Source: Euryarchaeota archaeon RBG_19FT_COMBO_69_17
Lineage (GTDB): Archaea > Thermoplasmatota > Thermoplasmata > RBG-16-68-12
Direction of reading: 5' to 3'
Length of the DNA: 42,787 nt
Assembly (NCBI GenBank): GCA_001800825.1
Contig: MGWD01000025.1
Coordinates: 15,303 to 58,089, forward strand
Within the stretch, counting starts at the first letter, position 1. The number at the start of each line of letters is the position of its first letter. The notes under the pieces are model-generated. The model worked only from the letters and a program-made list of their open reading frames with translations, made no database searches and was not told the DNA's origin. Shown here piece by piece: positions 27,124 to 31,746 of this stretch. The translations under genes and the position numbers were made by a program.

Positions 27124-30100
27124 CTAACGGCCGCCGGCCCTTGGAACGCTGTCAGCCACTCCCTCTTCCTTTTTCCCGCGGCCCCTGGAACGGAGCCGGA
27201 GCCCGATGATCAAGAGGGGGACCGCGAGGACGAACGCGAAGTCCGTGAGCTCGGGGATCGCGAGGACGACGGCGGCCGTGCTCGGGGCGAGGGCGTACCC
27301 ACCGAGGGTCGTGTAGTTGAGGAAGGCCCAGTTCACGATCTGGGTCGTGTTCGCGCCCGCGGCCACGACCGCGGTGAGGGTGATGCTGTAGGCGCCCGGA
27401 GCGACGTTCGTGAAGTTCCAGTAGAACGTCGTCCCATCCGTCCAGCTCGGCGCGGGGTTGCTCCCGGTGTAGGTCAGGCCCGAGGGGAGGCTGTCCCGGA
27501 TCGTCACGGTCCCCGCGGCCACGGAGCCCGTGTTGTTGTAGTAGATCGTGTACGTGACCGTGTCCCCTGCGACCGCGCTCGCCGGGCTCACGACCTTTGC
27601 CACGGCGATCATGGGTCGGACGACGGTCACGTTGGCCCAGGCCTGGCCCGGCTCCATGATGCGCCGGAGCTGGTCCGTGTACACGAGGCGGGCCGTGTTC
27701 ACCTGGGAGCTGCCGTCCGCCCCGAGCCCGTTCACCTGGACCGTGACCGTGAAGGAGTTCGTGGACCCGGGGAGGACGTTCGTGAACGTCCAGCCGAGCG
27801 TGGAACCGGCGACGCTCGAGGGCGCGACGCTCGCCCCGACGTACGTCACCCCCGCGGGGAGCGTGTCGTTGACCCAGACGTTCCGCGCGACCCCGGTCCC
27901 CGTGTTGTTGTAGTAGATCGTGTACGTCACGAGGTCACCCGGGGACGCCGAGGGAGCGCTCGCGACCTTCGCGATCGTCACGACGGGCCGGTGTCGATCG
28001 TTCCCGCGGCCCGGGCTCGGGAGGAGGGATACGTAGAAGTCCGCGACGTCGTTGTTCGAGTCCATCGGCTGGCCCGTGAGGGGGTCCTTGAACCGGGCCC
28101 AGCTCCTACCACTCCCCGCGTTCGAGGAGTACGTCGTCTGGTCGACGACGACGCCGTTCTGGCGGAGTCGGAGGACGTTGTTCCCGTTGGGCAGGGAGTT
28201 CGAAGGGGGGATCGCGACGAAGTACTCCGTCCCGGAGCCCCACGCGCCGAGGACCTGGTTCGTGAACGTGTAGATGACCGTCGCGCGGTTCCCGCGCACG
28301 ATGACGATGTCCCATCCCGAGAGGCTCACAGGGCTCGACGTCGGGTTCGCGACCTCGATCCACTCGGGGTTCGGCTGGGGGGACACCTCGTTGATGACGA
28401 CCGTCGTCGCGACGGCGCGCGGGGCGACGGGGAACGTCGTCGCGCCCGCCTCGGGGCGGGCGTCGTCATAGCCGCGCCGCCAGTCCGAGGCGACGAACAC
28501 GACGCGGTACCCCGCGCTCAGGTTCAGGGCCGACGCGGCCACGCCGAACTCGACCCGGTGGGCGTCGAGGGTTGCCTCGATTGGGCCGACGTACCTCCAG
28601 GGGACTGCGCTGCCCCGCGCGTGTTCGTAGAGGCCGCGGGACACGATCCCGCCGTTCCGCCCCAGGACGACGAGGGCCCGGTCGAAGCCGTACCGCGAGC
28701 CCGCGACGTCGGAGAGGAGGCCCGTCGCTGTCGAGTTGTCCGCGTCCACATAGGCGTAGAGGACGTCCACCCCCTCCAGGACCTCAGGGGCGATGGGGCC
28801 GATGTACCGGGTCACGTTGCGGCCCGCGAAGGGGGCCGGATACCAAGAGGGGATCGTCGTGTTGAGCCAGAGGTCCGACCCCGCGGGGTAGTCGATGAGA
28901 CCGTCCGCGTCGACGTCCCCCGTGGCGTTGTCCAAGACCCCGTCATTGTTGAAGTCGTTCGCGAGGCCGGGGTTCGACAGGGAGAGCTCCACGGAGTCGG
29001 GGACACCGTCCCTGTCCGAGTCGAGGGGCGCCACGCCGGGCGCGCGAACCCGCGCGAGGGGAATGTCCTCTCCGCCCAGGATCCGTCCGTCGACCCGGGC
29101 GTACGCGGTGAAGTTGGCCCCGAGGTCCACGGCCGTCGCGAGGAGGTCCACGTTCGGGTTGTACACGGAGCTGCCGGAGGCGTTGATCGCGTCGCCCAGG
29201 AGGTCTGTCCCGTGGGAGCGGCCGGACCAGTCCCCGAACGCGCCGTCCACGCGGAGGGTCGTGGGCGCGGTCCCCAGATAGGCGAGGCCCGTCTCGGGCG
29301 CCGGGAACGTGACACTGCCGTTCGTCCAGACGCCGCGTGCCTCGAGCCCGAACGTCGACATCGGCGTCACGTTCGCCCAGACGGCCTCGACCCAAAGGAC
29401 CCGGGGGGAGGTCAGGCTCCCCGAGAGGGGGAGGCTGGCCGACGCGCCGATCAGGGGCCCGGATCCGAGGACCGGATCCGACGACTCGAACCGATCGTCC
29501 CCGTCGTCCTCGCGAAGGACGAGGGTCGCGGGGTCCGCGGAGGAGCCGCGGCGGCTCACGTTCAGGCCGTAAAGGTCCGGAATCCCGCCCAGCGGCCGGA
29601 GGGCGACCCGAAGGACGCCGGCGGAGGTCCCCGGGATGACGTCGGGGGCGACCGTCCGCTGGTCCACGACGACCGTCGCCCGGCCCGCCTGGATGGCTCC
29701 GTCCGCGGCGTCCCGCCGCCCTTCGCGGTCTGCGAGGACCACGAGGACGCGGCCCTCGGGCGGCAGCTCGACGTCGGAGAGGAGGACCTCGAGGCTCTGG
29801 CCCGAGAACGCGGCCCGCGCACCGCCCGCGGCGCCGAAACGGCCCCAGTCGTTCGAACTCGGACCACCCGTCGCGTTGAACCGGTACACGCTCGCGCTCT
29901 GGAGGGTGCCGCCCCAGCCGACGAGCTCCGCCACGAGGTCCGCCCCGAGGTCGCCCACGGGGTAGCCCGTGGACCCACGCCCGTCCTGGTCGACGAACAC
30001 GTACGCCCCGTCCGTCCCTTCGGGTCCGCTCCCCCGGAAGAAGAGGCCCTGGACGTGGGCGTAGACGAACAACCCCTTCGTCTCCGTGGCGGCGCGGACC

Positions 30101-31746: not shown

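Follow-up and report, generated by a model that had tools for sequence, protein, structure and literature searches.

A giant bitopic membrane protein of Thermoplasmatota encoded beside a KaiC-family ATPase and a winged-helix protein

The 42,787-nucleotide stretch of DNA analysed here (the window) lies on contig MGWD01000025.1 of Euryarchaeota archaeon RBG_19FT_COMBO_69_17. It encodes RNA polymerase subunits H, B, A' and A'', NusA and the large subunit of DNA polymerase D (PolD), and is therefore archaeal. At 27124..31746 its reverse strand carries a gene with an ATG start for a protein of 1540 aa (the giant protein), predicted to be a bitopic surface glycoprotein with its N-terminus inside the cell and an anchor at its C-terminus. 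Two further genes of the same strand lie directly upstream, encoding a 233-aa soluble winged helix-turn-helix (wHTH) protein of MarR/ArsR-like type (31832..32533) and a 290-aa single-domain ATPase of the KaiC family (32526..33398). The giant protein consists, in this order, of an (HhH)2 fold, three Zn ribbons, a TPR module, a disordered basic NG tract, a transmembrane (TM) helix, an ectodomain of about 1000 aa and the C-terminal anchor. An earlier note on this DNA, made from the letters alone, had proposed an architecture of this kind. We found one intact gene in which nearly every item of that proposal is present.

The GC content by codon position in the open reading frame (ORF) is 0.68/0.53/0.94, which matches the real genes of the window (about 70% GC) and sets them apart from its many spurious ORFs. 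Hence, the ORF is genuinely coding. An artefact would mean either that a misassembly across a tandem repeat had fused two genes, or that the ORF had arisen by chance. A 12-nt tandem repeat does sit within the gene and GC-rich DNA does give rise to many long spurious ORFs, but the third-position GC content is of the coding type and the relatives of the protein leave next to no probability for either version. A homologue search returned 234 proteins at E<=1e-5, of which the best 120 are mostly 1440-2500 aa long and 31-61% identical to the giant protein. More than 100 full-length homologues, found in assemblies made independently from uncultured Thermoplasmata, have this order of parts. Moreover, the first extracellular region (the core, described below) starts 0-12 residues after the single TM helix in almost all of 134 representatives, usually preceded by an NG-repeat tract. 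A near-identical protein (99%) in another assembly differs by exactly one NGRV unit fewer, in frame. The homologues and this copy thus exclude an artefact, including the split into two ORFs near the repeat that the earlier note had named as a way in which it could fail.

Only two hydrophobic helices were found in the giant protein, at aa 486-504 and aa 1500-1518. The N-terminus of the 1540-aa protein has no hydrophobic segment or signal peptide, as had been noticed before. TM helix 1 (30226..30297, aa 484-507; this and all further parts of the protein lie on the reverse strand) is predicted from its hydrophobicity and charge bias to be a type II signal anchor with the N-terminus inside. We counted Lys and Arg in the 15 residues flanking each helix in 238 family members. 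Around TM helix 1 the mean was 3.7 on the N-terminal side versus 0.9 on the C-terminal side, with 218 proteins favouring the N-terminal side and 15 the other. Around TM helix 2 it was 5.6 after the helix versus 0.6 before it, and 141 proteins favoured the former and none the latter. N-x-S/T sequons, whose abundance in the ectodomain had been remarked upon, number 18 there (8.0 expected from shuffled sequences) and zero in the head (2.0 expected). In the 120 homologues listed, the head has about 0.2 sequons per 100 aa and the ectodomain about 1.9. All 12 Cys residues of the giant protein lie in the Zn ribbons of the head, and in the listed homologues Cys is likewise essentially limited to these ribbons. 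Furthermore, some paralogues carry an ATPase domain at their N-terminus, which must be cytoplasmic because the ATPase can only work there. These four independent lines of evidence support an N-terminus in the cytoplasm, an ectodomain of about 990 aa outside, and a second anchor at the C-terminus whose basic tail is again cytoplasmic. They agree with the cytoplasmic head of about 480 aa and the single following helix that had been predicted, and contradict a placement of the N-terminal region outside the cell.

The C-terminal anchor (27169..27258, aa 1497-1526) has a tripartite build resembling PEF-CTERM, with an 'IPE[LF]xD' motif, TM helix 2 and an Arg/Lys cluster, all conserved throughout the family. 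The earlier note had put a second helix at the extreme C-terminus; the helix is there, whereas the very end of the protein is a basic tail of 22 aa. Archaeosortase substrates (PGF-CTERM with ArtA, PEF-CTERM with ArtC) share the Pro-Glu-[Phe/Leu] motif, the hydrophobic helix and the basic cluster, and PEF-CTERM is recognised by ArtC (PMC5244752). Unlike these substrates, the giant protein runs about 14 aa past the basic cluster, and its tail matched none of the sorting-signal models of NCBIfam. The tails of two homologues scored 11-15 bits, below the cut-offs of 23-25 (TIGR03024/TIGR04296). No archaeosortase gene was found within the 42.8-kb window.

The cytoplasmic head begins with the (HhH)2 fold (31561..31746, aa 1-62), which is acidic and has the degenerate hairpins GFD and GLE. 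In the single sequence this fold stayed below threshold (HHH_5, E=1e-3), whereas the family profile of the head matched solved (HhH)2 domains (Topo V 3e-11, XPF 2e-6, also Hef, UvrC, NusA and LigA), so that the motif pair first seen by eye is solid at the profile level. Three four-Cys Zn ribbons of the CxxC..CxxC pattern follow (31198..31527, aa 74-183; copies at aa 74-91, 122-139 and 165-182), with acidic linkers between them. All three had been recognised before, and Pfam DZR was matched with 30.6 bits versus a gathering score (GA) of 27.3. The next part consists of an invariant helix 'FLSRWQRV' (F203, R206, W207) and a TPR-like helical module (30616..31161, aa 196-377), in which two TPR_2 matches (aa 241-272 and about 316-358) bear out the TPR block of the earlier reading. 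The head ends with the NG/GRxN repeat tract (30298..30615, aa 378-483), which is basic and disordered and runs into an invariant 'TNGLVNGNGFTNGRRGR' just before the TM helix. This tract, noted earlier as a G-R-x-N repeat, is encoded by the 12-nt tandem repeat (30444-30579, 11.3 copies). Since the 99%-identical protein has one NGRV unit fewer, its copy number is polymorphic or dependent on the assembly.

A model of the head, as the earlier note had advised, was built with AlphaFold2 from a 17-sequence alignment and resembled beads on a string (pTM 0.29). The (HhH)2 fold (aa 1-60) was confident (pLDDT 81-91), the three small Zn ribbons (aa 74-183) and the helix with FLSRWxRV (aa 200-212; pLDDT about 56-72) were moderate, the TPR-like domain (aa 218-377) exceeded a pLDDT of 90, and the NG tract (aa 378-483) was disordered (pLDDT about 30). 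Foldseek searches with the head returned generic TPR proteins only. Across full-length homologues the head varies from 400 to 1350 aa. The TPR module is its most widely retained part, also in heads fused to KaiC, and many heads keep the TPR module, NG tract and TM helix while their N-terminal additions vary between (HhH)2 with 1-12 Zn ribbons, a KaiC domain, or short heads.

The presence of HhH and Zn-ribbon modules had suggested a DNA-centred role, in which the head would bind nucleic acid and the protein would serve as a tether between nucleoid and envelope or in the uptake or export of DNA. Indeed, the profile-level match to the (HhH)2 fold is genuine, canonical GhG hairpins occur in about 27 of 95 relatives, and the partner ATPase is a member of the RecA/RadA superfamily. 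Contact with nucleic acid is also conceivable for the basic NG/R tract (+13), and some paralogue heads open with a motif, 'ADLLKLAAKRGV', that reads as SAP-like by eye. However, the second Gly is lost from both hairpins of the giant protein (G-F-D, G-L-E), which departs from the conserved G-h-G pattern. The net charge is negative in each of the other parts of the head ((HhH)2 fold -6, Zn-ribbon region -15, TPR module -6), the NG tract being the only basic part, and the mean charge of the (HhH)2 fold in the 95 relatives is -3. Moreover, many family members do without HhH and Zn ribbons, the protein has a single TM helix and an anchor rather than a polytopic, channel-forming part, and no competence or pilus-type genes are linked in the conserved triad of ATPase, wHTH and giant genes. 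Because of the degenerate hairpins, the acidic domains and the replaceable HhH/Zn-ribbon part, the nucleic-acid emphasis of the earlier note finds no support. DNA binding by the head appears unlikely from its sequence, and the DNA-centred role as a whole has only a slight probability. The head resembles more closely the acidic (HhH)2 modules that serve in protein interaction (NusA AR1/AR2 and the C-terminal domains of XPF/ERCC1), with which it shares the profile-level fold, the acidic character and the loss of the glycine hairpins that contact DNA. It differs from them in its position at the N-terminus of a membrane protein. In the paralogues P0247, P0250 and P0252, the 'ADLLKLAAKRGV' motif (SAP/HeH-like as read by eye) replaces HhH and Zn ribbons, and the distal ectodomains carry FG-GAP repeats.

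The ectodomain starts with a core of three domains. D1 is a beta-sandwich beginning with 'IDGDFSDW' (29671..30213, aa 512-692), D2 is an Ig-like beta-sandwich (29272..29670, aa 693-825), and D3 is a homologue of D1 that begins with 'VDGAFGDW' and contains an insert of about 100 aa (28432..29271, aa 826-1105). The homology of D1 and D3, proposed earlier as a duplicated module, was established with HHalign (aa ~512-692 versus ~826-1105; probability 99.4%, E=5e-22). The insert in D3 carries three DxDxDGxxD loops of calcium type, at aa 909, 931 and 944 (within aa 909-952), and the sequence 'WLNTTIPxWYPAPFAGR' (also 'WLNTTIP..PAPYAGR'). Of the thrombospondin-type-3-like repeats that had been proposed, the Asp-rich loops stand but membership of the TSP_3 family does not. 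As the Pfam TSP_3 model did not match the giant protein, 'TSP3-like' is merely descriptive.

Beyond the core lies a lamin tail domain (LTD; 28129..28413, aa 1112-1206), which scored 39.5 bits in Pfam versus a GA of 34.3 and occupies a shorter stretch than the aa 1113-1245 given for it earlier. It is followed by two CLIPPER domains of Ig-like fold (27316..27978, aa 1257-1477), corresponding to the two DUF11-like repeats of the earlier description. Their copies span aa 1257-1356 and about 1378-1477 and were matched by PF01345 (95 bits in two stretches) and TIGR01451 (82.7 bits). CLIPPER is the new Pfam name of DUF11 and designates an isopeptide-stabilised stalk domain of fibrillar adhesins (10.1101/2025.04.25.650565). 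The whole ectodomain contains four Lys residues, of which K1260 and K1384 stand at the start of the respective CLIPPER domains and are candidate isopeptide lysines.

The core region (aa 505-1112) is nearly constant in length, at about 600-640 aa, in most full-length homologues. Its predicted structure (608 aa) is all-beta, with a pLDDT of 85.8 and a pTM of 0.78. The core matched no PDB sequence (best E=0.36), and a Pfam scan of 24 core sequences found nothing recurrent, with a single CBM9_1 match at 0.0055. Foldseek searches with the whole core model gave weak matches (TM-score <= 0.2) to individual domains, which included adhesins, sialidases that bear carbohydrate-binding modules (CBM), integrin ectodomains, glucodextranase and a CLIPPER domain. 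An exhaustive search with the core profile retrieved 1,686 representatives of clusters at 50% identity with E<=1e-3, of which 639 had E<=1e-30.

Upstream of the core, the 134 best of these representatives vary. Some have (HhH)2, 1-12 Zn ribbons and TPR, some have short heads, and about 17, all distant relatives, carry an N-terminal KaiC ATPase (Pfam PF06745, 66-93 bits versus a GA of 26.6). The order in these fusions is KaiC, TPR, Zn ribbon, NG tract, TM helix and core, followed by distal BNR/sortilin or FG-GAP domains. More generally, relatives of the giant protein exchange the distal domains of the ectodomain for FG-GAP or BNR/sortilin propellers. A KaiC domain is also fused or adjacent to family members at the paralogue loci L013, L029, L032 and L041. 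Since the ATPase that is a separate gene here forms part of the same polypeptide in relatives, these fusions provide strong comparative evidence for a functional coupling of ATPase and giant protein on the cytoplasmic side.

The ATPase has an intact P-loop with the Walker A sequence GRSGAGKT. It matched PF06745 with 127 bits, KaiC CI-like structures in the PDB at 1e-31, and the NCBIfam model of ArlH at 2e-8. Its gene overlaps the wHTH gene by 8 nt, and the giant gene is preceded by a TATA-like box of its own, about 26-31 nt from the ATG. The order ATPase, wHTH protein and giant protein is kept with homologues of 61%, 42%, 35% and 31% identity while the other neighbours change, and a paralogue on the contig of one such homologue lacks the ATPase/wHTH pair. 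A scan of GTDB species representatives for the family yielded 76 loci, often several in one genome. With a single exception, their labels were Thermoplasmata, Thermoplasmatota, Methanomassiliicoccales, DHVE2 or unclassified archaeal metagenome-assembled genomes (MAGs). In profile searches with hidden Markov models (HMMs) over all 82 loci, 24, which come from many Thermoplasmatota MAGs, had an orthologue of the ATPase (390-574 bits) together with the wHTH gene directly upstream on the same strand. The ATPase is by far the best conserved of the three, with 63-87% identity across loci, whereas the wHTH protein ranges over 29-67% and the giant protein over 31-61%. A search for relatives of the ATPase gave 995 at E<=1e-40, of which the best 120 are 78-90% identical. 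These identities and the intact Walker A motif indicate that the ATPase is under strong constraint. The ATPase ends in an extension of about 60 aa with a conserved acidic/aromatic tail 'QEYQ[GD]A' ('DEY', 'AEY' or 'REF' in distant orthologues); as a docking peptide, this tail is a plausible ligand of the TPR module, which we offer only as a lead.

The search for the same domain order in other archaea, advised in the earlier note, thus led to more than 100 homologues in Thermoplasmatota. Their names are generic only, and our literature searches on the architecture, the core family, the triad and the fusions, which left the 2017 survey of KaiC proteins unchecked, gave no description. In line with the earlier statement that the architecture matched no described system, the core family, its bitopic form, the triad and the fusions appear to be undescribed. 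The domain types (HhH2, Zn ribbon, TPR, LTD, CLIPPER, KaiC) and the idea of KaiC hubs are known, and it is their combination here that appears to be new.

Several observations concern single loci of the family. Locus L051 (LJNI01000151.1, 'candidate division TA06 bacterium DG_78') was the only bacteria-labelled locus with a family member among those fetched; it is probably a mis-binned archaeal contig, or else a case of rare transfer. The chromosome CP070629.1 (Thermoplasmata bin983) carries at least three family members (L054, L059 and L063), with the ATPase/wHTH pair at L059 only. At L032 two tandem paralogues each matched the orthologue HMM weakly through a fused KaiC domain (24-25 bits).

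The 3' end of the giant gene faces a convergent 5S rRNA gene (26935-27055, forward strand), 68 nt past its stop codon, as it also does at L001. A perfect 12-bp GC stem in the region 27056-27175 (27064-27075 / 27135-27146) overlaps the stop codon and the codons of the tail 'EEGVADSVPRAGGR'. The ending 'GVADSVPxxGGR' is shared by orthologues with no more than 36-61% identity elsewhere, which points to an element conserved in the DNA or RNA, for instance a 5S trailer or terminator, and not to constraint on the protein. A tRNA overlapping the 3' end was considered as its cause and rejected, as there is no tRNA at that position and the 5S rRNA gene lies downstream instead; Rfam matches at the level of the region were noise.

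Between the divergent PolD gene and the ATPase gene lies an ORF for a thioredoxin-like protein of 120 aa (33436-33798, reverse strand), which likewise has a TATA-like box of its own. This arrangement is present in L001 and L006 and absent from L002 and L004. PolD Pfam families were also found in the syntenic loci. On the other side of the giant gene, a Ras/Arf-like small GTPase gene (24996-25547, reverse strand) adjoins a gene for a 342-aa homologue of A24 type II peptidases (FlaK-like prepilin peptidase; 25851-26879, forward strand), and this pair is found downstream of the orthologue in L001 as well. Two proteins of the window had no Pfam match. One is a protein of 558 aa (2735-4411, reverse strand) that looks internally repetitive and, with an apparent N-terminal hydrophobic segment, secreted. 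The other is a hydrophobic, apparently polytopic membrane protein of 564 aa (37672-39366, forward strand) beside a glycosyltransferase-like ORF. An anti-phage defence system was considered and rejected, as PADLOC gave no match for the giant protein, and for its partners only generic wHTH (Csa3-like) and P-loop similarity.

The reading that we favour, with a probability of roughly 45%, is that the giant protein acts as a transmembrane receptor or adhesin coupled to KaiC. Together with the ATPase and the wHTH protein it would form a three-gene module specific to Thermoplasmatota, of which it would be the subunit that spans the membrane. The CLIPPER stalks, the Foldseek matches to adhesins, sialidase CBMs and integrins, and the relatives with swapped propellers point to an ectodomain of adhesin type. 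In the proposed mechanism, the N-glycosylated ectodomain would be fixed at both ends, by TM helix 1 at one end and by the PEF-CTERM-like helix or a lipid anchor at the other. It would display beta-sandwiches of lectin or adhesin type, namely D1-D2-D3 with its calcium-type loops, the LTD and the two CLIPPER domains. Inside the cell, the basic, flexible NG tract would keep the TPR scaffold, the accessory Zn ribbons and the acidic (HhH)2 fold near the membrane, and the TPR scaffold would recruit the KaiC-like ATPase, probably as a hexamer like other KaiC-family proteins. Engagement of the ectodomain by a ligand, or its clustering, would alter the state of the ATPase, which in turn would change the availability of the wHTH regulator and so may alter transcription. 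Such outside-in signalling would be akin to that of bitopic adhesion receptors with cytoplasmic adaptors. Of the roles suggested in the earlier note, the transmembrane signalling or anchoring device is thus favoured by the KaiC/wHTH operon and the fusions, and the nucleoid tether and DNA uptake or export are not. A bolder version, which we regard as doubtful, would make the triad a founding archaeal adhesion-receptor system, in which surface contact, or clustering induced by a ligand, changes the state or phosphorylation of a probably hexameric KaiC ATPase that is seated on the TPR head or fused to it, and thereby leads to release or capture of the wHTH protein.

Several points weigh against a KaiC-coupled receptor. 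The family is represented by MAG and metagenome sequences alone, most paralogues at the 82 loci have no detectable link to the ATPase, and no ligand-binding site was identified in the ectodomain, whose fold matches are weak overall. A single TM helix followed on the inside by a disordered linker of about 100 aa cannot relay a conformational change, so that signalling would need clustering or oligomerisation. The wHTH protein could merely autoregulate the operon. Furthermore, a constitutive structural role would explain just as well why each genome has a single orthologue, and why it lies among housekeeping genes (PolD, 5S rRNA).

The last point leads to the main alternative, which we consider less likely than the receptor although far more probable than a DNA-centred role: the protein could be a major coat glycoprotein, part of a glycocalyx or S-layer-like cover of wall-less or S-layer-poor Thermoplasmatota. 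Both of its ends would be pinned, the head would anchor the coat to an internal scaffold, and the ATPase would act inside-out in assembly, turnover or remodelling. KaiC-family ATPases do act in the assembly of machines, such as ArlH in the archaellum, and the ATPase of the window has its match to the ArlH model. The single orthologous triad per genome with its conserved surroundings and the strong sequon enrichment of the ectodomain would suit a coat. So would the anchor of IPE[LF], TM helix and basic residues, which belongs to the type found on S-layer proteins and other archaeosortase substrates, and the mechanical and thermal stability that CLIPPER domains confer (10.1101/2025.04.25.650565). 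In contrast, a dedicated wHTH regulator within the conserved triad is at odds with such a role, and the C-terminal tail falls below every cut-off of the archaeosortase-signal HMMs. Moreover, the family has expanded within genomes into several paralogues whose distal domains and heads are exchanged, a pattern typical of receptors or adhesins and not of one lattice protein.

The favoured receptor or adhesin shares features with several known systems. Like fibrillar adhesins with CLIPPER stalks (10.1101/2025.04.25.650565), the giant protein has tandem CLIPPER domains beside a membrane anchor, putative binding domains of beta-sandwich type and a C-terminal sorting or anchor element. Unlike them, it lacks a signal peptide, is not wholly extracellular and has two CLIPPER copies only. 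Its 483-aa cytoplasmic head and type II signal anchor mean that it is held at both ends, and its linked partners are an ATPase and a protein resembling transcription factors. The comparison with integrins and other bitopic adhesion receptors is a functional analogy only and implies no homology. It concerns the large ectodomain with calcium-type loops, the single TM helix and the cytoplasmic part that is proposed to recruit adaptors; FG-GAP propellers also occur in relatives, and integrin ectodomains are among the weak Foldseek matches. The giant protein differs from integrins in its large, N-terminal cytoplasmic part and in having a RecA-superfamily ATPase as its partner.

Archaea have few classical sensory systems, and hubs built on KaiC-like ATPases have been predicted in them, not shown. 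Makarova, Galperin and Koonin reportedly proposed in 2017 that these ATPases serve archaea as hubs of signalling, combined with diverse domains for input and output, and Galperin et al. (2018; PMC5847659) restated the idea. In keeping with this prediction for a group whose studied members include ArlH, GvpD and CirA, the single-domain ATPase of the triad is linked, and in paralogues fused, to a putative input (membrane or extracellular) and a putative wHTH output. Distinctively, the input here is bitopic, with an adhesin-like ectodomain of about 1000 aa and a TPR/Zn-ribbon/(HhH)2 head. The triad therefore offers a concrete, testable case for the predicted hubs, combining an extracellular part, a cytoplasmic scaffold, a conserved ATPase and a partner of DNA-binding type, and the natural gene fusions argue that these parts function jointly. 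The extracellular arrangement of about 600 aa represents, with about 1,700 clusters at 50% identity, a large family without a Pfam model or a solved relative detectable by sequence. If the bolder version of the receptor interpretation is true, the D1-D2-D3 family would form a set of receptors particular to the Thermoplasmatota lineage, and the signalling network predicted for KaiC would gain in it a first concrete channel for extracellular input. These results hint at how abundant, uncultured Thermoplasmatota of soils and sediments may build or sense their surface.

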